Part shown: positions 1 through 58,213 of the stretch, piece by piece
How positions within the stretch are numbered: position 1 is the first letter of the stretch
Layout: each line of letters starts with the position of its first letter
Notes under the pieces: generated by a model
Told to the model about the DNA's origin: nothing
The model's input: the letters and a program-made list of their open reading frames with translations, nothing else
The model's database searches: none
NCBI GenBank assembly: GCA_964016885.1
Contig: OZ024741.1
Location: 391,034,001 to 391,098,000 of the forward strand
Length of the DNA stretch: 64,000 nt
Reading direction: 5' to 3'
From: Eledone cirrhosa
Lineage: Eukaryota
Made by a program: the position numbers and the translations under genes

Positions 1-254
1 CCCATGCTGTCAATAATGTTAGCAATAACATTGAACATTTAATTTTTGGAGTCCAGGATTGGTATGCCATGTTATATACCAAGATTACCGGAACAATGAC
101 ACAAACGGAAAAACTTGCATTTTCACAAATTAATGGTTTGCATAAGAGAAACCCTATAGTCTATGTTGGTTACCGACACATGGAAGCGATTAAAGATAAG
201 GATGATATTTTAGTAATTTGTTTCTAGGATATAATTACATAAATGTTCAAAATG

Positions 255-400
255 AGGACTACTAGGCAGTGGAGTAGAATTAAAGGGTGGTCAAAGGCAA
301 GATGGCGCGACGATTTGACCCGATACCTCGGCCCCACATAACCCAGTATGGCCAGAGATAGGAAGCATCAATTATGGAGGGTTCCTCCAACAGGAGTGAA
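255..400 (+). mobile_element. Decayed 3' end of an RTE-type LINE ORF
   Basis: Translates as ...KARWRDDLTRYLGPT*PSMARDR..., resembling RTE C-termini (RW.DD...A.DR). Confidence 0.5.
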
Positions 401-795
401 AAGTCCTTGGATTTGGATTTGGATTTGGCTTCAGTCATTGAACATTTGCTCTTTCATATTAGTGTGCGAGAGGAAGAAATACCCTTTCAGCGACTGAAAC
501 ACCATGTAGTCTCTAGATCTGCTAGAAATAGTAGATAAATCGTACACAATCAACACGTCTTACCACCTTTAATAAAAAAAAAATGGGATAAATTGGACAA
601 TGTGGTAGTTCTTTGGTATGGTCCCGTAACACCTGATGGAGTCGTAGGGGCGCCGTAGGGGAATACGGCATTTCTTGAGCATTTTAAGCCTGGCGAAGCC
701 CATACCTCTTCAGGTTTCAAGACAACAGATTTCTTCCATAGAAGGATAGAAAGTGAGAGAGAGAGGAAGCAAAAAAGAGATATAGAGGAAGAATC

Positions 796-928
796 TACCC
801 AGTACTTGACTGGTACTTATCAACCCAAAGTTGACCCCGACAGGATTTGAACTTAGGGAGCAGAGAGCCGGAACGATTACAACAAAGCACTCTATTCGAC
901 GTTCTAACGACTCTGCCAATTCGTCGCC
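796..928 (-). mobile_element. tRNA-derived SINE fragment (Octopus-type)
   Basis: Reverse strand GGCGACGAATTGGCAGAGTCGTTAG...AGTTCAAATCC...GTACCAGT; related copies at 1561, 19615, 40979, 44590. Confidence 0.65.
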
Positions 929-1135
929 TAGTAGTTCTATAAAAGAATTTTTAAAAAGCGTATTTCGTCATAAATTATCAGCAAATTCCTGGCGTTTCAT
1001 AGACATGTCCGAATTACGTTCGAATCTCGGTTGAAACAGCTTATGTTTTTTTGAGAAGGTACGATTGTATCAGCTTTCTATTTGTCTCTTCCCATCAAAC
1101 TCTTAAATTATAAGGGCTTTTGTGTTTAGTTGATA

Positions 1136-1280
1136 CTAGCAGAATGGCCCGGCGTTGTTCGGGATTTGCTCTAGGGTTCTTATATATTTGATGTTATTTA
1201 TCCTTATCGAGCCTCGTGAAATAAATACTTTTGTTTATATTTTGTTATTGTGCATGCAAAAATATCTGTACACGAATATA

Positions 1281-1352
<72 letters not shown>

Positions 1353-1925
1353 TAACAGATTAAAGTTTAAGCAAAGAATCGCTGCTTTCACCCTTAACGG
1401 GATCTTCTAAAACTAAAAAAAATCAATCTGTGAACGCAGAAGTAAATATTTCGAAAAACGTTACACACTATATAATATATATATATATACACACACTAAT
1501 ATATACATATATATACACACACACATATAGCGTTATAATGTCGTAATGCAGACAGCCAGACATTCTGAGTTCAAATCCCGCCGAGGTCAACTTTGCCTTT
1601 CATCCTTACGGGGTCGATAAAATAAAGTACCAGTAATGTACTGGGTAATTGCTGGCCTTGTGCCAAAAGTAGAAACAATTATAAGGGCGCAACGTTATAT
1701 CTATGTATCTATCTAAAAAGAAAGACTAAGAATTATAGAGAGAGATCGCTAAATCGCCTACTGCGGTCCCTAGGGCATTGAAAATTTGAAATTGTTTTTG
1801 CTCAAAACACTCACAGGACCATAGTATTATATGTATAAAGTTTAAAAACAATCGGTAGGGTGTTTCTCGAGTTTTAGTGATCTGACACACAGACAGACAG
1901 ACATTTTCTGTTTTAGATATATAGA
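1136..1925 (-). mobile_element. Non-autonomous Helitron
   Basis: Minus strand starts TCTATATATCTAAAACAGAAAATGTCTGTCTG and ends with hairpin CCCGAACAACGCCGGG + CTAG; ends and an internal segment match the element at 48792-50259. Confidence 0.7.
1561..1683 (+). mobile_element. SINE fragment nested in the Helitron
   Basis: GAGTTCAAATCC B-box then GGGGTCGATAAAATAAAGTACCAG body; near-identical to 41048-41140 and 19615-19703. Confidence 0.7.
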
Positions 1926-2964
1926 CAAGACGCTTCATGTAATACTGAGTTTGCAACACTGAGTTATTGCAATACATAGGTTGCACCTCACGGTACTTAT
2001 GTACCAGTGGCGAATTAATGTGTGGCGACTGGGCTGCAGCTAGAGAAGTCCAATGCTTAAAGAGCCTAAAATTAACGTTTTTGCCACCATAAATAATAGA
2101 CGGAAAAGCTCCCGATGAAATTTCCAGCCAGGGCTCCCATGCGAGCTTAATCAGTCCCTGCTACAAACAGCTAGGAAAATGGACAGTTGAGAGTATATTA
2201 CTTATATTTTACAGAAACAAAGCACATCACTTTCAATGAAATACCATCAAATCTTGTTGAATAAATAATAAAATTCAATAGTAAAATAAAATAAAATAAA
2301 AACAGAAGTGAAGCCAGTGCTAATATGCTTTATGTTTTTTTGTATGATCTGAAATGTGAATATTCAACGTTTCCTTTACTATATTGCAGCAAACAAAGGG
2401 AAGTCGCTGAAGCCACGGTAATATTCACTCAATATACATTCGTGACTGCTTAATTTATCATAATGCCTGTGGATATACTGTGAAATGCTTCCTTTCATTG
2501 GAAAAAACGATATGGTAAGAGGCCTTTTCTTCCATTATTAAACGAGAAAGAAAATAAGGAATGGAACAAGAAAACAATGCAATGAAACAAAAAAAAATAA
2601 AACAAAATGAAGCAAGAATGACTCTCTAAAACATTTATAGCCTCCATTACTTGCTGAATAAATAAAGGTTTCATGAAACTGTAAATCATAAAGTGAAAGA
2701 AATAGGCATCTTTGTTATGCTTAAAGCAATAAAGCTCGGAAATAATACGATATTTCCGACTGTAAAATGGATGAATTATAGGATAGTTTCAGCCACAGAT
2801 TCACTACTGAACTAATTGAAAACAAACAATAGACAACCTAATGCGCAACTGAATGTAATTCGCTTTTCAATTCAGTTGTTATTCTCGTTCAAGAAATTCA
2901 TTAACAAACTGAAGTCCAGTCAACGTATTGGTAATAAAATGTTCTATATAAAGGTTCAACTATA

Positions 2965-3135
2965 TCCAGCCATTACCACGTGGAATGGACCTCCATCGTT
3001 TTCGACGGTGAGTGTTCCTGTTTGGGATATTAACGTAGTTGATCACTCGACTGACACGTGTACCCTTAATTCTGAAGGATATTTAGCGCGACATAATATG
3101 TGATAAGGTTGGTAATTTGAATTACAAGTGCAGTA
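2965..3135 (+). mobile_element. Probable SINE body fragment (second family)
   Basis: GACACGTGTACCCTTAA...GTGATAAGGTTGG...TTTGAATTACAAGT resembles cephalopod SINE bodies from memory; not repeated in the window. Confidence 0.35.
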
Positions 3136-3540
3136 AAGTAAAGCAGAAATCTGCATTAAAATAACTTTAATGTTTAAAAACTTGATTTACTGACTGCTCT
3201 AATTCAATTTTTAACATGTCTTGGACTTTGATCATTTTGTTTTTCATTTGGGTTTCATTGCATATTGCCCACCTGCATTCCCAATGTACTCCTCCAACTG
3301 TTAATCAAAGTATAGCACCTCCCTCCACGAAGAGAAAGGTTTGAATGAAGTAAACTCAATCTGACTAATTTATTATTTGATATCGAAACAGATTAAGCTT
3401 AGCCACCGGGCAAAAAATATCTATGATATCTATTCTTCACTTTCCATATATATAGAGTATTACATTTATTAACGGCCTTACTCGTCTTAACTACTAACAC
3501 ACACACACGCACGCACGCACCCCCCCACACACATACACAT

Positions 3541-8379: not shown

Positions 8380-8420
<41 letters not shown>

Positions 8421-8423
<3 letters not shown>

Positions 8424-8609
8424 AACGAGTAGGACCCCGACGTCTGAGCTCAAGCCGTTTCGACGGCTAATTCTGGACTAATTAGCCGTCGAAACGGCTT
8501 GAGCTCAGCCGTCGGGGTCCTACTCGTTCCTATTACCCACTCTACTACCCTAAGTATTGAGTACTTTGGTGCATTATGGTCCACCTGGTTCGTTACCACA
8601 TTTCCTTCG

Positions 8610-8612
<3 letters not shown>
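8421..8612 (+). mobile_element. Mini-insertion of the PLE terminal module (family of 28998-37430)
   Basis: Inverted arm 8421-8480 plus direct arm ending TTCCTTCGTTA-(TA)n. Confidence 0.9.
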
Positions 8613-8654
<42 letters not shown>

Positions 8655-8851: not shown

Positions 8852-9220
<369 letters not shown>

Positions 9221-9469: not shown

Positions 9470-9525
<56 letters not shown>

Positions 9526-9528
<3 letters not shown>

Positions 9529-9704
9529 CGAAGGAAATGTGGTAAGGAACCAGGTGGACCATAACGCACCAAAGTACTCAATACTTAGGGTAGTAGAGTG
9601 GGTAATAGGAACGAGTAGGACCCCGACGGCTGAGCTCAAGCCGTTTCAAGTCCAGAATTAGCCGTCGAAACGGCTTGAGCTCAGCTGTCGGGGTCCTACT
9701 CGTT

Positions 9705-9708
<4 letters not shown>
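9526..9708 (-). mobile_element. Mini-insertion of the PLE terminal module, opposite orientation
   Basis: Long end on the left, short end (TTCCTAT) on the right; junction ~9648. Confidence 0.9.
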
Positions 9709-9757
<49 letters not shown>

Positions 9758-10074
9758 GTGTGTGTATGTGTGTATGTGTGTATCTGTATATGTATGTGTG
9801 TATATATATATAAACATATATATGGGCTACCATGACACCAATACACATCCCATCTCCTTCCATTCGAATTAGAAGCTATGAACTTAGCAAGTGAATGATA
9901 AACAAGCAAATTAATAACGTAAACATGTAAATATGTTTTTGAAACGGTGCGCGAGTTTGAAATTAGAAATTAGAAAATATAAGCTTTCACCGTATTTTAG
10001 ACTAACAAAATTTCTAGCCTGATAGTGGGGTTTATAACCCTCGGAGAAATGGAAAAAGATGAGTGTTGCCGTAC

Positions 10075-11272
10075 ATGGCTTTAAAAATGCCGCATTAGCT
10101 AATACAACGTCCTTGGCTGATACAATTAATAATTATAGAAAGAAGAACATCGATTACAACCTGACCTGGAGAGTGCTCAAAAGGGCCACCCCTTATCAAA
10201 ATAGCAGATACGAGTTTAGGTTATGCTCCCAGGAACTTTTTGAAATCATGAAATCTAAGGATATCCTATTAAATAAGCGGCAGGAATTAATTTTATCTTG
10301 CAATCATAGAATTAGAAGAACCTTCAAATATTATAAACCTGATTAATATACACCTTACTCTTATATTTTACATATTATTATAATTGTTTTTTTAAATTTA
10401 GTTAACCTATAATTATTATTTATTACAGAGAACTTCATATTTTTATTTCCCTCTTACAGCTCTCTTTTCCTAAAATTATTTTTAACCACACTACTTCATT
10501 TAATCGCATCCCCTATTTATCACATTTAATACCTATGATTATTAAATATAATTAATATCTTTAATATCTCAAATGTCCGTATAGATACAATACTCTTTAT
10601 AAACATTTTTATCTACTTCAGTTTTTCCATATATTTATCTTTTATTGTTTTAATTTCTTACTTCTTTATTTATCACATTCATATGAATTAATATAAATTT
10701 ATCCCTATAAGTATACCTATCAATTAATTTAATTTCTTGTTATATATCTAAATTCCTTGTGGTTTAAATATGATAGGTATTTCTCACTAATACCCTTACC
10801 CTAAAATTTTATTTTCCTTCGTTTTTAACAATATTCTTTAATAACATCAAATTTTCGTGTACCCTTCACTATCTTCTTGACTTGACCTCTTTTCAGCCCC
10901 AAAGTATTCTTTTCATTCAAAACATAAGTCTGCACTCCCCTACCCCTACCCCTAGATTTAATTTCTACTACTGTTATTCTATCAACTTGACCTCTAACTA
11001 CTTTTCTATTGGTCAATTCAAAACCTGTTCCCAAACAGACCCTTTATATTAATTCCTTGTTTTTTTCAATAAACACACCTCATCATTTCTGAGGACGGCA
11101 TGTATATGTGAAGGTATGTATATTTCCTCTGATAATTTGTAATATTTTTACATAGATCTATATAATATACATACCAACACACATATACATCCCAGAAACG
11201 ATCGTAAAATGATGATTTTTTTAATATAAGGAACTTGTTCTTTGTTTTTATTTCATTGTTTTTATTAATTTA
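10075..11272 (+). mobile_element. 5'-truncated PLE: GIY-YIG C-terminus, 3' UTR and hammerhead
   Basis: ...TWRVLKRA...LCSQE...LLNKRQELILSCNHRIRRTFKYYKPD*, homologous to 55187-55567; hammerhead 11081-11214 (CTGAGGA...GAAACGATCGTA, stem I CATCATTT/AAATGATG). Confidence 0.85.
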
Positions 11273-23669: not shown

Positions 23670-23672
<3 letters not shown>

Positions 23673-23910
23673 AAAAAGTATGACCCCGACGGCAGAGCTC
23701 AAGCCATTTCGACGGCTATTTCTGGACGTGTATATACATTTGTAGGTGCATATACACACATTTATACACAGTCCAGAAATAGCCGTCGAAACGGCTTGAG
23801 CTCTGCCGTCGGGGTCATACTTTTTCCTATTTACCACTCTACTATTCTAAGTATTGAGTACTCTGGTGCGTTATGGTCCATCTGGTTCCTTACCACATTT
23901 CCTTTGTTAA
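23670..23910 (+). mobile_element. Mini-insertion of the PLE terminal module (sister subfamily)
   Basis: Same two termini; both arms share private variants (GGTCATACTTTTTCC). Confidence 0.85.
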
Positions 23911-25145: not shown

Positions 25146-25182
<37 letters not shown>

Positions 25183-25185
<3 letters not shown>

Positions 25186-25314
25186 GACGGCAGAGCTCAA
25201 AGTTTGAGCTCTGCCGTCGGGGTCATACTTTTTCCTATTTCCCACTCTACTACCCTAAGTATTGAGTAATCTGGTGCGTTATGGTCCATCTGGTTCCTTA
25301 CCACAATTCCTTTG

Positions 25315-25318
<4 letters not shown>
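25183..25318 (+). mobile_element. Mini-insertion of the PLE terminal module
   Basis: Short inverted arm plus direct arm ending CCTTTGTTA-(TA)n. Confidence 0.85.
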
Positions 25319-25377
<59 letters not shown>

Positions 25378-26780: not shown

Positions 26781-27576
<796 letters not shown>

Positions 27577-28379: not shown

Positions 28380-28532
28380 TATCAGTTACCGAGGAGGTCA
28401 CAGAATGTGTGACGAAAGCTTTGACAACAGTCATCTGATTGTGAAACGAACCAAATGGAAGTTTATAATAAATTGAATTGAAAACCAACACGTGCTCGTG
28501 TTTATACTGGTAGCATGACCCTCCCAAAGTAT

Positions 28533-28606
<74 letters not shown>

Positions 28607-28960
28607 ATACTTTGGGAGGGTCATACTGCCAATAAAAACACACGCATCTGTTGTTTTCATTTCAATTTATTATAAAAAAAACAAGACGGTGTAGGACAGA
28701 ACAATGGAGAGACACAACATATAAACCCAGTCACTGAGGAGGTCACAGAATGTGTGACGAAAGACCGTTGACAATCTATAATCTATAAACAACCATCCGG
28801 TTATCGAATCAGCCAGTCAACCGGATATTTATAATAAATTGAAGTGAAAACTTGCAGGTGCGTGTGTTTTTATTGGCAGCCCCCCCTGTAACAATATCTG
28901 TTTCAACATACGTTTTCAGAAAATAAATCTTGCAAAACAAATTCAAAAACGAAGTATAGA
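28380..28960. mobile_element. Two PLE-end fragments with hammerheads (GTCACAGAATGTGTGAC stem II)
   Basis: Motifs at ~28388 and 28734; related copies at 47977 and 52690-52830. Confidence 0.7.
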
Positions 28961-28961
28961 T

Positions 28962-28998
<37 letters not shown>

Positions 28999-30212
28999 GG
29001 AACCAGTAAGACCCCGACAGCTGAGCTCAAGCCGTTTCGACGGCTAATTCTGGACTAAATGAAAATTTATCCTGGTATTTAAATAGCCGATCTTCTCAAG
29101 GGGTAATTCCATATATGGTCAAAGTGATTGTCAAAAATCAGTAGTAATTCTGTGGTTGCAAATTAGTAGGGGAGATGGTGGCTAAACCTGCCAGTAGGAG
29201 AAAGAGGGGAGGGGGTGGAGTAGACCCAATCAAGCGTTGGTAGTGCCAGCTACAGCTGGGCATGAGGTCAAAGAAGATACAGGGGAGGGGGAGGGGGAGG
29301 AAGTCGGAACGGTAGGTAGAACAATGGGGGGTAGAAATAGGAAAGAAAAAATACTGAGAGTGAAGAAAAGCAAATAAGTGTAAAGAAAAAAGTAAAGTAA
29401 ATTAAATTCTACGACCTAGGTGTCAGGCTATTGTTAGGCGAGAATAAAATAAAGAAAGAAAGAAAGAAGTAAATAAATAAATAAAGAAAGAAATAAAGAA
29501 ATAAGTAAGAGAACTAGGTGGGACGGATAAAGGCAAGGACCCTTTTAAGAGGTATAAGTACGTAAATGATACGGTGACGGGTCAACAAAAGGGGCCAAAA
29601 TACTAAAGAGACTACCACGAAATAGACAATAAAGGTTTCCATCCCGGGCCAGCAACGACCCAGTGCAGCAAAGTGAACTTGTACGAGATAATAATTCTGA
29701 GTCTCGAGAAAAATATATACTAATGCTAACTCTAAAAGATCTAAAACAAGCTACATGAAAGTTCGTACGAAATAAAGGTAGAATACGGAGAAATAAATTC
29801 AGAATCCACCCCGCCCAGAAGAAAAGCGAAGCAAGAAATACTGAAACGAAAAAATAAGGCATAAGTGCCACTAAGAAATATAGAGGGCACAGAGAATAGT
29901 GGGAGCGGTCGGAAAAAGGGGGTAAGTATCCGGGGTCTAAGCCAACTGCTATAAAGGGCGGAGTCCGCCAAATCTATCAAAGACTAGGGGAGGGGGGGGG
30001 GGGGTACTAAGGCTACATGGGGCCAAAGGGCAGCCTCGGGTGGGCGAGAAAAGACGCCGACAAAGGAGAAGAGCTGGGGTAGAAGGACAAAGGAGAGAGG
30101 GGGGAAGGAAATAAAGGAAGCGATAAAAGAATACAAAGAAGATCTTACGTCTTCCTTGGCAAGCAGGGGTTACCCATTGCAAAATCGGCAACTGGGGTGT
30201 TATAGCCCTAGT

Positions 30213-31782
30213 CTACCCCCCCGGGTCATTATGGGGTTTGAGGGCGAGGTAAGTCCTACGCAATCTATGTTTACATGCAGTAACCAGTTCATCTTTCTTG
30301 TTTAGGAGTTGGTCCGTCGAAAACAGCATTTGTAAAGTTTCCTCCGAGCATAAATTGCACGGACGGCGTCCTCCCGTGTAAGAATTGGCTCTGGACAGTA
30401 ATCTCCAAGTGAGATCATAGGTGATGTTGTTGTCCTTGAGGTCCCATATGTGGCCCGAAAGTGTAGTGGCGTGACGCCGGGCCGGGTTTTGGAGGGTATG
30501 TCTATGTTGGTATAGCCGGGTCTTGAAGTCACATGCGGTAAGTCCTATATAGGCTTTGTTGGAGGTATCCGTCCTCACGTTGCACTGGTAGATCACATTA
30601 CGGTCTCTGCATCTATTGTCGAGTGGGCAAATTGATCTATCCGGGCAGTTACACCTCCTGGTCGGTTCTCCACTGCTAATTAGGTTATTTCTGCCATCGG
30701 GGTTGAGTTTTTTGTTGTTAGAGGAGACGATGTTTTGTGCGAAGTTTGGTGTAGTGCTGTAAGAGAGTTTGATGGTATTTTTGTTAATTATGTTGTGGTA
30801 GCGGTGTTGTAATGGGAAGTGTTTTTCAATGAGCCTAAAGAATAGTTTCCCGATGGGAGTAGTCACCTCTGCGTTGTGGGGAGGATTGAACCATGTTACA
30901 TTGCGTGAGCGGCGGTGTCTCCTGCTGGTTCCGCTAATGGGAGCTGGACAGTAGGATATTTCCTCCCGGAAACCACTCCGCTTAAGGGCCTGGTTGTAAT
31001 AAGGCGCATGTTCATCGAATATCCGCTCATTAGCTGACAAACGGGATATGCGGAGGGAGATGTTTTTGACCAGGTTGTTTGTGATGTTCCTAGGATGGTT
31101 TGATCGGCGGTGGATGTAGTGCAGATTGTCATTAGGTTTCCTGTATGGATAGTACAGGTCGTTTTCGAGGTCGAGGGTTACGTCCAGGAAGTTTACTCGG
31201 GTCAGGGACGTTTCTAGGGTTATTTTAAATCCCCAGTCGCGGAAGAATCTGATTAATTGTTTCCGGACCCTATCTGTACTACTGGGGTTGTACCCTTTAA
31301 GGGTAAGGAGCCCATCATCACGGTACAATCCACCACCGAATGCAGGAAACATATCAGTGAGTTTGGCTATTAGGAATAATCCTATAAGATCAGTGACCTC
31401 CGCCGAATCCGTGGCGCCCATGCTGACGTCGAAGGGTGAGTCGGGAGCTCTTTTTATCCATTTAGAGTCGTCAAAGAGTAAGACTGTCTTCCTGGCGTGG
31501 AGGATGATTTTTCTTTCCTGGTCGGTGATGGGCACGAGTGTTTCGGCGAAGTCCAAGGCGGCAGTAAGTAGCGGTAAGGTGATTGAAGCATAGTAGCTCT
31601 CTATGTCGAACTGTATGAATTTAGTTTCTCGTTTATCCTCCATATTGCTGAACCAAGAGATTACTTCCTGGGTGTTGATCCATAGGCTAAGTCGGGTGTG
31701 TTGCTTGACTTTTGGTATCACGCGGTCTAGGATTTTTTTGCTGATTCTCCCTATGTCGGACTTCGTTGGGTTAATAAGCCTG
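30213..31782 (-). pseudogene. 5'-truncated PLE RT/GIY-YIG ORF (inverted arm)
   Basis: FDIESYY, SMGA, LYRDD, FLD and YIG motifs; lacks the N-terminus. Confidence 0.9.
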
Positions 31783-31783
31783 T

Positions 31784-32602
31784 TTGTCAGCTAATGAGCG
31801 GATATTCGATGAACATGCGCCTTATTACAACCAGGCCCTCAAGCGGAGTGGTTTCCGGGAGGAAATATCCTACTGTCCAGCTCCCATTAGCGGAACCAGC
31901 AGGAGACACCGCCGCTCACGCAATGTAACATGGTTCAATCCTCCCCACAACGCAGAGGTGACTACTCCTATCGGGAAACTATTCTTTAGGCTCATTGAAA
32001 AACACTTCCCATTACAACACCGCTACCACAACAAAAATACCATCAAACTCTCTTACAGCACTACACCAAACTTCGCACAAAACATCGTCTCCTCTAACAA
32101 CAAAAAACTCAACCCCGATGGCAGAAATAACCTAATTAGCAGTGGAGAACCGACCAGGAGGTGTAACTGCCCGGATAGATCAATTTGCCCACTCGACAAT
32201 AGATGCAGAGACCGTAATGTGATCTACCAGTGCAACGTGAGGACGGATACCTCCAACAAAGCCTATATAGGACTTACCGCATGTGACTTCAAGACCCGGC
32301 TATACCAACATAGACATACCCTCCAAAACCCGGCCCGGCGTCACGCCACTACACTTTCGGGCCACATATGGGACCTCAAGGACAACAACATCACCTATGA
32401 TCTCACTTGGAGATTACTGTCCAGAGCCAATTCTTACACGGGAGGACGCCGTCCGTGCAATTTATGCTCGGAGGAAACTTTACAAATGCTGTTTTCGACG
32501 GACCAACTCCTAAACAAGAAAGATGAACTGGTTACTGCATGTAAACATAGATTGCGTAGGACTTACCTCGCCCTCAAACCCCATAATGACCCGGCGGGGT
32601 AG
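31784..32602 (+). pseudogene. 5'-truncated PLE ORF (thumb, linker, endonuclease)
   Basis: Same protein as 35312-36139 except a 9-bp deletion (HNKN vs HNIINKN). Confidence 0.9.
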
Positions 32603-33706
32603 ACTAGGGCTATAACACCCCAGTTGCCGATTTTGCAATGGGTAACCCCTGCTTGCCAAGGAAGACGTAAGATCTTCTTTGTATTCTTTTATCGCTTCCT
32701 TTATTTCCTTCCCCCCTCTCTCCTTTGTCCTTCTACCCCAGCTCTTCTCCTTTGTCGGCGTCTTTTCTCGCCCACCCGAGGCTGCCCTTTGGCCCCATGT
32801 AGCCTTAGTACCCCCCCCCTCCCCTAGTCTTTGATAGATTTGGCGGACTCCGCCCTTTATAGCAGTTGGCTTAGACCCCGGATACTTACCCCCTTTTTCC
32901 GACCGCTCCCACTATTCTCTGTGCCCTCTATACTTCTTAGTGGCACTTATGCCTTATTTTTTCGTTTCAGTATTTCTTGCTTCGCTTTTCTTCAGGGCGG
33001 GGTGGATTCTGAATTTATTTCTCCGTATTCTACCTTTATTTCGTACGAACTTTCATGTAGCTTGTTTTAGATCTTTTAGAGTTAGCATTAGTATATATTT
33101 TTCTCGAGACTCAGAATTATTATCTCGTACAAGTTCACTTTGCTGCACTGGGTCGTTGCTGGCCCGGGATGGAAACCTTTATTGTCTATTTCGTGGTAGT
33201 CTCTTTAGTATTTTGGCCCCTTTTGTTGACCCGTCACCGTATCATTTACGTACTTATACCTCTTAAAAGGGTCCTTGCCTTTATCCGTCCCACCTAGTTC
33301 TCTTACTTATTTCTTTATTTCTTTATTTATTTATTTATTTACTTCTTTCTTTCTTTCTTTATTTTATTCTCGCCTAACAATAGCCTGACACCTAGGTCGT
33401 AGAATTTAATTTACTTTACTTTTTTCTTTACACTTATTTGCTTTTCTTCACTCTCAGTATTTTTTCTTTCCTATTTCTACCCCCCATTGTTCTACCTACC
33501 GTTCCGACTTCCTCCCCCTCCCCCTCCCCTGTATCTTCTTTGACCTCATGCCCAGCTGTAGCTGGCACTACCAACGCTTGATTGGGTCTACTCCACCCCC
33601 TCCCCTCTTTCTCCTACTGGCAGGTTTAGCCACCATCTCCCCTACTAATTTGCAACCACAGAATTACTACTGATTTTTGACAATCACTTTGACCATATAT
33701 GGAATT

Positions 33707-33800
33707 ACCCCTTGAGAAGATCGGCTATTTAAATACCAGGATAAATTTTCATTTAGTCCAGAATTAGCCGTCGAAACGGCTTGAGCTCAGCTGTCGGGGT
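33707..33800 (+). ncRNA. Type I hammerhead ribozyme with a U3-A8 core; copies at 37243-37336 and ~29011-29105(-)
   Basis: ACCCC-TTGAGAA-GATCGGCTA...TAGCCGTC-GAAA-CGGC..GCTG-TC^GGGGT; GUC cleavage triplet ends at 33795. Confidence 0.75.
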
Positions 33801-33985
33801 CTTACTGGTTCCTATTACCCACTCTACTACCTCAAGTATTGAGTACTTTGGTGCGTTATGGTCCACCTGGTTCCTTACCACATTTCCTTCGTTATCTAGC
33901 TCCTACTCCCGTAGTAGAGCACTTTCCGACCCTACCACGCCGTATCCAGACTTTTCCGCTAAGCTCAATTCATTTCACCCGCACC

Positions 33986-36139
33986 ATGCGAAAACACAAC
34001 ATTGACTTCTCTACCAAGAACATCCCAATCCCACCGAAAAAACTTTACCTTCGGATGCTCACGTAAAAAATTGATCTATTTGCGAAAAGACTTAGATGGA
34101 GAACTTTTTTCTATGACAGATGTTGCGACAACCAGGACTTCGGCGCCAAGGAGAGATTCGGATTTATTACCTACAAATCTCCGCCCCTGAACCCCTTGCT
34201 CGCACCCTTCGAGAATGACCTCTTCCAGCTGGTCAGGAACATTAAATTTAAACCCAGACACAACCGATTCCTACAAAAACTCCGTAGCAACTGAACAGAG
34301 TATGATAACACAAATGACATCATGGTGCATTCGGATAAAACTGGGAACCTATACTTTGTCAACCCTGACAGATACCACACACTGATCAGGAGCAGCCTAA
34401 ACTACACCTATAAAAAGGCCAACCACTCTTGTATCGAGGACATAAATCGAGATGGACAACAAATCACCTCCAGCCTCGGGGTCGCCGACCGCACGGAACC
34501 TCTAGACCCACGAACACCATACTTCACACTGAAGGACCATAAATCCGATTTTGACCGTAAACCCTCCATCAGGCTTATTAACCCAACGAAGTCCGACATA
34601 GGGAGAATCAGCAAAAAAATCCTAGACCGCGTGATACCAAAAGTCAAGCAACACACCCGACTTAGCCTATGGATCAACACCCAGGAAGTAATCTCCTGGT
34701 TCAGCAATATGGAGGATAAACGAGAAACTAAATTCATACAGTTCGACATAGAGAGCTACTATGCTCCAATCACCTTACCGCTACTTACTGCCGCCTTGGA
34801 CTTCGCCGAAACACTCGTGCCCATCACCGACCAGGAAAGAAAAATCATCCTCCACGCCAGGAAGACAGTCTTACTCTTTGACGACTCTAAATGGATAAAA
34901 AGAGCTCCCGACTCACCCTTCGACGTCAGCATGGGCGCCACGGATTCGGCGGAGGTCACTGATCTTATAGGATTATTCCTAATAGCCAAACTCACTGATA
35001 TGTTTCCTGCATTCGGTGGTGGATTGTACCGTGATGATGGGCTCCTTACCCTTAAAGGGTACAACCCCAGTAGTACAGATAGGGTCCGGAAACAATTAAT
35101 CAGATTCTTCCGCGACTGGGGATTTAAAATAACCCTACAAACGTCCCTGACCCGAGTAAACTTCCTGGACGTAACCCTCGACCTCGAAAACGACCTGTAC
35201 TATCCATACAGGAAACCTAATGACAATCTGCACTACATCCACCGCCGATCAAACCATCCTAGGAACATCACAAACAACCTGGTCAAAAACATCTCCCTCC
35301 GCATATCCCGTTTGTCAGCTAATGAGCGGATATTCGATGAACATGCGCCTTATTACAACCAGGCCCTCAAGCGGAGTGGTTTCCGGGAGGAAATATCCTA
35401 CTGTCCAGCTCCCATTAGCGGAACCAGCAGGAGACACCGCCGCTCACGCAATGTAACATGGTTCAATCCTCCCCACAACGCAGAGGTGACTACTCCCATC
35501 GGGAAACTATTCTTTAGGCTCATTGAAAAACACTTCCCATTACAACACCGCTACCACAACATAATTAACAAAAATACCATCAAACTCTCTTACAGCACTA
35601 CACCAAACTTCGCACAAAACATCGTCTCCTCTAACAACAAAAAACTCAACCCCGATGGCAGAAATAACCTAATTAGCAGTGGAGAACCGACCAGGAGGTG
35701 TAACTGCCCGGATAGATCAATTTGCCCACTCGACAATAGATGCAGAGACCGTAATGTGATCTACCAGTGCAACGTGAGGACGGATACCTCCAACAAAGCC
35801 TATATAGGACTTACCGCATGTGACTTCAAGACCCGGCTATACCAACATAGACATACCCTCCAAAACCCGGCCCGGCGTCACGCCACTACACTTTCGGGCC
35901 ACATATGGGACCTCAAGGACAACAACATCACCTATGATCTCACTTGGAGATTACTGTCCAGAGCCAATTCTTACACGGGAGGACGCCGTCCGTGCAATTT
36001 ATGCTCGGAGGAAACTTTACAAATGCTGTTTTCGACGGACCAACTCCTAAACAAGAAAGATGAACTGGTTACTGCATGTAAACATAGATTGCGTAGGACT
36101 TACCTCGCCCTCAAACCCCATAATGACCCGGCGGGGTAG
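33986..36139 (+). pseudogene. Full-length PLE ORF (RT + GIY-YIG) with two premature stops
   Basis: ATG 33986 MRKHNIDFSTKNIPIP...; in-frame TAA 34064 and TGA 34292; open 34322-36139 with SDKTGN, LYRDD and YIG. Confidence 0.9.
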
Positions 36140-37450
36140 ACTAGGGCTATAACACCCCAGTTGCCGATTTTGCAATGGGTAACCCCTGCTTGCCAAGGAA
36201 GACGTAAGATCTTCTTTGTATTCTTTTATCGCTTCCTTTATTTCCTTCCCCCCTCTCTCCTTTGTCCTTCTACCCCAGCTCTTCTCCTTTGTCGGCGTCT
36301 TTTCTCGCCCACCCGAGGCTGCCCTTTGGCCCCATGTAGCCTTAGTACCCCCCCCTCCCCTAGTCTTTGATAGATTTGGCGGACTCCGCCCTTTATAGCA
36401 GTTGGCTTAGACCCCGGATACTTACCCCCTTTTTCCGACCGCTCCCACTATTCTCTGTGCCCTCTATACTTCTTAGTGGCACTTATGCCTTATTTTTTCG
36501 TTTCAGTATTTCTTGCTTCGCTTTTCTTCAGGGCGGGGTGGATTCTGAATTTATTTCTCCGTATTCTACCTTTATTTCGTACGAACTTTCATGTAGCTTG
36601 TTTTAGATCTTTTAGAGTTAGCATTAGTATATATTTTTCTCGAGACTCAGAATTATTATCTCGTACAAGTTCACTTTGCTGCACTGGGTCGTTGCTGGCC
36701 CGGGATGGAAACCTTTATTGTCTATTTCGTGGTAGTCTCTTTAGTATTTTGGCCCCTTTTGTTGACCCGTCACCGTATCATTTACGTACTTATACCTCTT
36801 AAAAGGGTCCTTGCCTTTATCCGTCCCACCTAGTTCTCTTACTTATTTCTTTATTTCTTTATTTATTTATTTATTTACTTCTTTCTTTCTTTCTTTATTT
36901 TATTCTCGCCTAACAATAGCCTGACACCTAGGTCGTAGAATTTAATTTACTTTACTTTTTTCTTTACACTTATTTGCTTTTCTTCACTCTCAGTATTTTT
37001 TCTTTCCTATTTCTACCCCCCCATTGTTCTACCTACCGTTCCGACTTCCTCCCCCTCCCCCTCCCCTGTATCTTCTTTGACCTCATGCCCAGCTGTAGCT
37101 GGCACTACCAACGCTTGATTGGGTCTACTCCACCCCTCCCCTCTTTCTCCTACTGGCAGGTTTAGCCACCATCTCCCCTACTAATTTGCAACCACAGAAT
37201 TACTACTGATTTTTGACAATCACTTTGACCATATATGGAATTACCCCTTGAGAAGATCGGCTATTTAAATACCAGGATAAATTTTCATTTAGTCCAGAAT
37301 TAGCCGTCGAAACGGCTTGAGCTCAGCTGTCGGGGTCTTACTGGTTCCTATTACCCACTCTACTACCTCAAGTATTGAGTACTTTGGTGCGTTATGGTCC
37401 ACCTGGTTCCTTACCACATTTCCTTCGTTATATATATATATATATATATA

Positions 37451-39072: not shown

Positions 39073-39533
39073 AAATATATATGTATATGTATATAATATA
39101 TATGTATATAAAATTGTACTTACAACCATAATTCTTCATATAATCTAATTGATTATATATACAATAATACATAATATAGCTAAAAAAATTTTAAATTCTG
39201 GAATCATATTCCACCATTCCTACAAATTCTTTTTAAATTAACGTAAATAAAAGCAGCTCTTCTTTCTTTCTTTTTCTTCTTCCTACACATACATACATAT
39301 ATCCTAATTATTTAAATCAACATAGCGTCTAAAAATAACGTTTTTTTTTCAGCCCATTTGCATACCCATCTTAATAATTTGAAATATTTGACTTTTCTTC
39401 TCTTTCCCTTCTTCCCTTCACTATCCAGGAAAAAAACTTGAACCGTTAAGTTATTCTTCCCTGATTATGTCAATATGGTAAATATGGTTTTATAAATATA
39501 GTTTCCATTTATTTAATATCATTGTATATATAT

Positions 39534-39635
39534 AGGAACAAGTCTTACTTGTTCCTATTACCCACTCTACTACCCTAAGTATTGAGTACTTTGGTGCGTT
39601 ATGGTCCACCTGGTTCCTTACCACATTTCCTTCGT

Positions 39636-39637
<2 letters not shown>
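39534..39637 (+). mobile_element. Smallest mini-insertion of the PLE terminal module
   Basis: 10-bp inverted arm AGGAACAAGT plus direct arm to TTCGTTA-(TA)n. Confidence 0.85.
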
Positions 39638-39717
<80 letters not shown>

Positions 39718-52839: not shown

Positions 52840-57303
<4,464 letters not shown>

Positions 57304-58213
57304 CCACCAATTAATGGTAGGGTCCAAACCGTATGAAGAACTCTATGTAATCTGTATGTAGAAGATGTCGTGAAGCAAAGTTTAAAATACAAAATTTCAA
57401 CGATATAATTCATTGGAAGCAGAGTCAAAATAATACAAATAATGAAAACAATGAAATTAAACAAAATACGGGTAATTCATAGTAAAAACTCATTATTTTA
57501 CGATCGTTTCTGGGGGATAGTTCTCCGTATGTTCATTCTATTAGAAAGGAGTGTGGACTATGTTCCCAAGAAATTTTTGAAATTACTAAATCGAAAGACA
57601 TTCTATTAAATAAAAGACAAGAGTTAATTATCGCATGTAACCATAGAATTAGAAAGACATTCAAGTATTATAAATACAACTAAACAAATAGAGAAAAAAA
57701 TATACAAGAATATATATATATATATATATATTAGGTATAGGATCATCCATGATGTAGTAATGGTTAATTACTACACTGGATATGGTTGACGTCCGGTGAG
57801 AGGTTACTCTACGAGTTATGGAAGAATTGTTGAAGAAACTTAGTTCCTGATCCTTCTGTATTCCGGAGTGTATATAAAGAATGTCCTCTCTCTACCTCTC
57901 TCTCTACATCCATTACACTCTCTCTCTCACGCCTTTGGCCTACCTCCCTCTCCATATCTATGAACCTGCCCTCTGGGGCAATAAATAATTCCGACCTTAA
58001 CTATCAACGCATCTCTCCAAAAGTAACCAGTATAATAAAACCCTACCATAACATTTTGATTAAGATATCTACAAACCACTCTCTCCTACTTCTCCAACCC
58101 CTGCATATCTTTCTCTCTCTCTCTCCCTCTCCCCTACTTTTCTCTCTTCCTCTTCTACTCTATCTTCTCCAACAACCCCACTTAAGGGTATTTACATTGT
58201 ACATTTTACCATT

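Follow-up and report, generated by a model that had tools for sequence, protein, structure and literature searches.

We describe an insertion at 28996-37431 in a 64,000-nucleotide (nt) stretch of the Eledone cirrhosa genome (the window; assembly GCA_964016885.1, contig OZ024741.1, positions 391,034,001 to 391,098,000 of the forward strand). By its motifs and layout it is identified as a young, broken Penelope-like element (PLE) with Hydra-clade motifs, lying in a (TA)n tract. Comparison across its family indicates that the long arms of these insertions were likely copied from one continuous RNA, either a circle or an uncut multimer. A linear monomer that had been fully cut could not have served as the template for such arms, as a first-pass annotation of this DNA had already recognised. 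The template would most probably be a 3,536-nt monomer released by a predicted ribozyme and closed into a circle; both the cutting and the ligation are predictions, and we give this form of the template about an even chance. Taken singly, the window locus is an ordinary, broken copy. It is the family that makes the unsettled question of the template testable.

Unit positions are counted from the base directly 3' of the predicted cut (+1, window position 33796), so that unit position p of the full copy is window position p+33795. An arm is one orientation of the insertion and a pass is a single traverse of the unit. GTC triplets at 33793-33795 and 37329-37331 are spaced exactly 3,536 nt apart and delimit the single full unit (33796-37331, plus strand). 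The direct arm consists of unit 1512-3536, then 1-3536, then 1-100, or about 1.6 units. Its first part is the partial upstream copy (pseudo-long terminal repeat, pseudo-LTR; the second pass) at 31783-33795 on the plus strand, which has a private 9-nt deletion, and its last part is a 100-nt tail beyond the cut (37332-37431), the long end. The inverted, 5'-truncated arm (28996-31782, minus strand) consists of unit 775-3536 and 20 nt beyond the cut site, the short end. The two arms meet head to head with a short imperfect overlap at 31779-31782. The termini of the insertion are therefore at +20 on the left and +100 on the right, both beyond the cut, and both adjoin (TA)n (28976-28995 and 37432-37449). 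The first-pass annotation had read the bracketing of exactly one unit by predicted GUC cuts, the length of the direct arm and the placement of both termini downstream of the cut in the same way, and these observations stand. The inverted arm differs from the full unit by eight substitutions and three homopolymer indels, including PGG/PAG and CTT/CTC. An assembly artefact was considered and rejected because the layout is common to dozens of loci with distinct flanks and junctions and because the three copies in the window differ. Among contigs from four runs, some break off from the element at +100 or at +20 and continue into (TA)n, in agreement with both ends of the insertion; no contig bridges the locus, and depth gives no copy number.

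The 3.0-Gb genome holds many near-identical copies of the element. Each DNA search gave 808 to 1,486 first-look candidates, of which the best 40 were scored. The family sample comprises 108 loci with long flanks, including the window, and 80 further loci chosen by an N-terminal peptide. Among the 108 loci, arms end at +20 (95) or at +100 (93) and seldom elsewhere. Of the 85 insertions with two arms, 84 pair a short end (+16 to +22) with a long one (+88 to +100). Two ends of one kind were never found together (0 of 85), the exception to the pairing being a tiny rearranged 36/20 pair. The long end may lie on either arm, being on the longer arm in 40 of 77 cases and on the shorter arm in 37. One locus (L288) was considered as a short/short pair and rejected, since it is two adjacent events. 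The arms overlap by at least 3 nt at 29 of 90 junctions versus 4.9% by chance, although extension of ends by BLAST may inflate this figure. We infer two priming events, one per target strand, whose complementary DNA (cDNA) ends are then joined. At the arm junction of L135 (joined locus L133, 19171-22474) there are dozens of repeats of one 55-nt stretch from the open reading frame (ORF; unit 1714-1771), possibly owing to stuttering of the reverse transcriptase (RT) or to later expansion.

Ends beyond the cut correspond to the published PLE tail (PMC11167929, PMC8557442), which marks where RT starts internally, at two sites 3' of the ribozyme cut (PMC11167929). In many insertions both arms are shorter than one unit and yet the ends lie beyond the cut; for this reason such ends do not alone require a template longer than a unit. 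The suggestion in the first-pass annotation that the layout fits a circle or an uncut multimer must be divided accordingly. The layout alone is no evidence of a circle, whereas the family data do favour a continuous template, with the circle somewhat ahead.

The positions at which arms stop bear on the extent of the template. Twelve rearranged or cut-off loci were excluded from this test and only arms reaching unit 3381 were counted. The stops of second passes (n=48) and of their first-pass partners (n=69) have medians of 2482 and 2470 (Kolmogorov-Smirnov p=0.98), and the hazard ratio is 1.14 (interval 0.79-1.67), where a source-limited linear RNA would predict about 2. None of 90 long-arm junctions recurs. 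A linear RNA transcribed from a typical 1.x-unit locus would be expected to cap the second pass at the edge or promoter of its source and to transmit shared junctions. Because there is neither a ceiling on second passes nor a shared junction, priming at the 3' tail of a 1.x-unit transcript was rejected as the probable main route. A pile-up of stops at unit 2552 was considered as a transcription start and rejected, as it is present in both passes and lies at a C-run.

The predicted cut site itself is crossed exactly in 338 of 373 copies; four have a changed G-run length, which is within the range of control runs. Stops cluster at +260 to +345, where a hand count gives 16 of 62 arms (P<=3e-5), or 13 of 59 without three query arms (P<=9e-4). 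In the window this zone of frequent arm stops and of restarts of filler segments is placed at +269 to +327 (34064-34122). None of 72 segments that read through +255 to +340 contains an indel there, and the eight indels found in this interval in 68 mostly older loci are largely homopolymer slips. Segments with a 3' edge at +284 to +327 occur in 9 of the 80 peptide-chosen loci, and also in L317 and L334; two lie directly against (TA)n. Since filler segments have this 3' edge, the primed RNA appears to extend well beyond +100, into a stretch that is not present in normal genomic 3' ends. Arms that stop at -5 to +9 make up 7 of 57 in the peptide-chosen set (P=0.0014 at 2 stops/kb; 0.012 at 3). There are thus hints that the ribozyme may cut where predicted and that most long templates would have been closed or uncut there. 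Filler segments from the start of the ORF (3' edge +289 to +327) lie between the arms of L347, L355, L378, L395, L398, L404, L317 and L334. These fillers resemble mini-units shortened by internal deletion to a few hundred nt, from which retrozyme-like elements might arise.

The arms and passes of a locus agree closely. At 45 common polymorphisms in 78 loci, opposite arms agree in 1,660 of 1,668 comparisons, with at most one conflict per locus, and tandem passes agree in 1,222 of 1,227, while disagreement between loci is 33%. Both arms of the window carry one source haplotype. The alleles at sites 1286 and 2848 are shared across its arms and occur in no other locus, and rare lineage alleles are also common to all of its arms. 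Two RNAs from the same source are indistinguishable from one. Phasing of the arm-specific single-nucleotide polymorphisms against other genomic copies, which the first-pass annotation had recommended, sorts the eight substitutions into three classes. Four are confined to a single copy and are found in none of the 107 other loci (901, 1343 and 1573 in the inverted arm, 971 in the full unit). Three are common to both direct copies only, again in none of the 107 (2337, 2674, 2735), and one lies in a microsatellite (3066). Site 1702 is private to the partial copy. The inverted arm does differ from both direct copies, as had been noted, but the direction requires correction: at PGG and two further sites it is the direct copies that have changed, with an allele private to the two of them, and the inverted arm agrees with the family. 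Searches aimed at the window alleles revealed no other carrier among the best 40 scored matches each.

The alleles shared by the direct copies form one tract (36132-36861, with its partner at 32595-33325), and the copies differ on either side of it and at one C-run inside. Homogenisation after insertion is evident elsewhere in the identical inner units of L043 and L046, in the ABAB patterns of L064 and L133 and in 13 variants common to both full units of L063. It is likely the simplest cause of the shared direct alleles in the window, whose arm differences most likely arose after insertion by point mutation together with homogenisation of the direct copies. RNA editing was considered as a marker of single molecules, and there is no excess of A>G among the variants common to both arms (2 of 47). 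Five A>G changes within 115 nt at 34122-34236, shared only with L031 and L032, are likely an RNA-editing scar fixed in an ancestor.

The predicted ribozyme was recovered by an unconstrained fold of 33700-33805, which gives a type I hammerhead three-way junction with core segments UUGAGAA (33712-33718) and GAAA (33773-33776) and the cut triplet GUC. The motif (33707-33800) is a U3-A8 core variant with a palindromic loop III, as in published PLE hammerheads (PMC4209133), and cleavage is predicted after 33795. A second copy, like the first on the plus strand, lies at 37243-37336 (predicted cut after 37331). A third, with the same sequence as the folded copy, lies in the inverted arm at 29011-29104 on the minus strand (core 29093-29099, predicted cut after 29016). 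The fold is no more stable than those of shuffled sequences (z -0.16), and no hammerhead was among the 21 matches of an Rfam search. Core position 7 varies in 27 of 311 core copies and every other position in at most 6; the copies being related to one another, this conservation lends modest support to the predicted ribozyme. The internal cassette at 33796-33919 on the plus strand would contain both RT start sites (+20 and +100), and a predicted helix pairs 33823-33831 with 33911-33919, spanning the +100 site. This helix is conserved and almost invariant, and no covariation was seen in an alignment with one mis-coordinated row. In an older subfamily (L407, L409, L411, L412, L415) core position 3 is C while position 8 is A, which leaves them unpaired in the predicted ribozyme.

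The full unit encloses an entire ORF of 717 codons (33986-36139, plus strand). The first-pass annotation was right that the whole ORF is contained, but did not mention the two premature stops at 34064-34066 and 34292-34294. Both stops are absent from all other loci covering them (68 and 79 loci), and full-ORF segments are open in 38 of 79 in the family sample. The translation has YRDD (RT) and VIYQC...AYIG (GIY-YIG) motifs. Atlas look-alikes (0.95-0.99) carry HTH_animal, RVT_1 (40-78% of members) and GIY-YIG (26-31%) domains, and Pfam and PDB sequence searches with the element protein gave no relevant match. Marks of the Hydra clade were identified by eye: HSDKTG (DKT), CNCPDRSIC (CxCX5C), CNLCSEE (CxxC) and CKH (CxH). 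The GIY-YIG core has one Cys and no CCHH, and the N-terminal motif is RWR rather than the RWK of the Hydra clade (PMC8557442). As in EN+ PLEs, a single ORF combines RT with a C-terminal GIY-YIG, a partial tandem adjoins an inverted 5'-truncated copy, the pseudo-LTRs contain a type I hammerhead motif (by fold and core), and there is a tail, here of 80 nt rather than 30-40 nt. Insertion into (TA)n is found across loci, as in the Hydra clade. The element is not a non-LTR retrozyme, as its unit is 3,536 nt with a 717-codon ORF and not a non-coding sequence of a few hundred nt. These motifs assign it to the EN+ PLEs with Hydra-clade motifs. A metagenome scan gave eight loci, three of them at 37% identity and too distant for comparison of the RNA cassette. 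Those three (L308-L310) have a canonical CUGAGGA hammerhead-like motif just 3' of the ORF and a short 3' region.

A mechanism can be proposed from these observations. The enzyme, probably as a dimer, would open both strands of the (TA)n target. One RT would begin at +100 and the other at +20. Both would run through the cut site, closed in this model, and continue until they dissociate, at a rate of about 0.9 stops/kb that is the same in both passes. The two cDNA ends would then be joined head to head. An arm that passes the zone at +270 to +327 and the cut site twice would rebuild the pseudo-LTR. In its complete form, the proposal is that an autonomous, protein-coding PLE moves via a 3.5-kb ribozyme-made RNA circle, that a single dimer supplies both RTs, which copy simultaneously from +20 and from +100 and each serve one end of the cut DNA, and that the grip of the enzyme on its RNA near +300 limits completion of a lap. 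This would be the long-sought route of pseudo-LTR rebuilding. We offer the complete form tentatively, as something short of an even prospect.

Several points weigh against copying from a circle. In vitro, a Poseidon PLE is reported to use uncut RNA and to insert with ribozyme mutants too, and none of the reads started at the cut (PMC11167929). Multi-unit arrays are present in 6 of 108 loci, and because DNA-level events can produce them, a route through a linear multimer is available. One of these arrays, L064, lacks any private variant running through the whole array and might be a master array. A parent-daughter search of the 108 loci gave no multi-site pair, and its one single-site 1.x-unit candidate was L038 (site 445). 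In the younger sample no stop falls within 19 nt of the cut, and when the samples are pooled the pile-up of stops at the cut weakens to P=0.02 to 0.12. Three-way comparisons across loci gave five variants shared only by direct copies, and as three of these are in the window, it is an outlier. The loci are search matches and not a random sample, and the stop test depends on the exclusions given above.

The strongest alternative is that the template was a linear, uncut RNA transcribed from an array containing at least two full units; RT would start at the internal cassette, and the arrays would be renewed by unequal DNA exchange. We think it rather unlikely, but it has the published model and in vitro data behind it (PMC11167929), and it explains the seamless crossing of the cut, the two ends and the restarts at +284 to +327 equally well. 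Only two kinds of template place a full unit upstream of a complete start cassette, namely a circle and an array in which at least two units are full. Such arrays, of 2 to 4 full units, do exist in the six loci mentioned, and five appear to have grown once inserted, L064 and L133 having ABAB patterns and L043, L046 and L063 identical units. However, five of the six carry array-wide variants that are absent from the other 107 loci, and because of this these five arrays have no sampled daughters. Rare sub-lineage variants are present in all covering passes or arms in 60 cases and in only some in one (70 loci), and no junction is inherited among the 90. In the same 70 loci, 46 single-copy variants match other loci, mostly by C>T. 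L038 and L300 have both arms longer than one unit. The arms of L038 differ at site 445, and one of them has the allele that defines L055, L060, L064 and L318; in three of these four loci the second pass is longer than the partial copy of that L038 arm. If L038 founded the four loci, a circle or a jump would be required, although the evidence is a single site, for which ectopic conversion or the use of two templates would account as well.

Jumping is the basis of another alternative, in which the template is linear and RT leaves it at a 5' end (at the cut, near -40 or near +300) and resumes on a 3' copy, either guided by homology or moving end to end, thereby mimicking a circle. Jumps do happen, as arms that stop at +1 or near -40 resume at +284 to +327, or at +545 (L317, L347, L348, L355, L378). 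Against this, scars are not enriched either at the cut site or within +255 to +340, and the partners of long arms are rarely tiny (5 of 77, plus three very short), though insertions with two tiny arms are common, with six in the window. Because long arms seldom have tiny partners, the template would appear to be chosen before copying rather than by a separate jump for each arm, and we consider jumping unlikely. Still less probable is an origin of the partial upstream copy in DNA-level events alone, through a second adjacent insertion or unequal exchange and without reverse transcription of more than a unit. Duplication in DNA is evident in the arrays, the direct copies of the window share their three private alleles, and older papers describe pseudo-LTRs as tandem insertions (PMC2377424). 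But the unit junction has neither (TA)n nor a scar, the passes share a haplotype, and unequal exchange requires a pre-existing tandem. The least credible alternative is that the inverted arm had an RNA template of its own, transcribed from another locus than that of the direct arm; the first-pass annotation had raised a second RNA as a possibility. The three private alleles of the direct copies are missing from the inverted arm, opposite arms carry slightly more single changes (29 versus 19 and 18), and the arms of L038, L043, L055 and L141 differ at one shared polymorphism. Yet in none of 78 loci do the arms differ at more than one common site, and this possibility is further opposed by the alleles peculiar to both window arms and by the allele-targeted searches, which found no other copy among the best 40 scored matches each. 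With the agreement of opposite arms given above, the suggestion of a second source does not hold up.

The window contains other elements of this kind. Six tiny insertions, each with two arms and belonging to this family or to sister families, lie at 8420-8616, 9004-9147, 9522-9712, 23670-23909, 25180-25321 and 39530-39641. Most of these stop no more than about 45 nt upstream of the cut, and none of them includes the ribozyme core's 5' half. At 52958-55561 there is an older, broken PLE from a different family, with about 45-60% protein identity, and further fragments lie near 10074-10340 and 57543-57662. Long perfect hairpins at 27170-27282 and 28507-28632 have sub-threshold scores against microRNA models and are probably small inverted-repeat elements.

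The tandem, the inverted arm, the tail and the idea of a circle are all already in print. The Hydra clade (Craig et al. 2021, PMC8557442) resembles this family in its one ORF with RT and C-terminal GIY-YIG, its DKT, CxCX5C, CxxC and CxH motifs, the lack of CCHH, the (TA)n target, the hammerhead, the partial tandem, the inverted truncated copy and the tail at one end. It differs in having RWK, in a size of "generally <3 kb" against the 3.5-kb unit here, and in its tail of 30-40 nt against about 80 nt. Poseidon PAc of Anolis (Frangieh et al. 2024, PMC11167929) likewise has two RT starts 3' of the cut, extension of both DNA strands, a predicted dimer and a need for RNA beyond the start site. Its authors favour an uncut multimer RNA and saw no cut-site reads, whereas here short and long ends, separated by 80 nt, are strictly paired, and the cut is where some cDNAs stop. 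The arrangement of PLEs in tandem is restated in PMC6765202.

The circular-RNA model for PLEs dates from 2014 (Cervera and de la Pena, PMC4209133). In that model, proposed without in vivo evidence, ligated circles template copies longer than a unit. The PLEs of that study also have hammerheads in both pseudo-LTRs, the U3-A8 core variant and the palindromic loop III. What was there a proposal is here accompanied by counts from genomic DNA that bear on the circle. Metazoan non-LTR retrozymes also have a type I hammerhead per unit and tandem copies (PMC7229834; bioRxiv 10.64898/2026.07.22.740005). Their circles have been demonstrated and are ligated by RtcB in vitro, and PLEs are the suspected mobiliser (same sources). 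They differ in being non-coding and 170-400 nt long, while the 3.5-kb unit here encodes an enzyme. A literature search, with supplements and subscription journals outside its scope, found no full-length PLE circle shown, and no count of strict end pairing, of a pass-independent stop rate or of a zone at +300 for an autonomous PLE.

The rebuilding of pseudo-LTRs has been an open question since at least 2008, when it was said to have "no obvious mechanism" (PMC2377424). The circle model of 2014 and the uncut-multimer model of 2024 compete, and the counts from this family narrow the choice. The family singles out exact positions, namely +1, +20, +100 and +270 to +327. If the circle is true, it would unite PLEs with retrozymes and viroid-like copying within a single cycle, and would offer a two-ended, RNA-templated insertion system.

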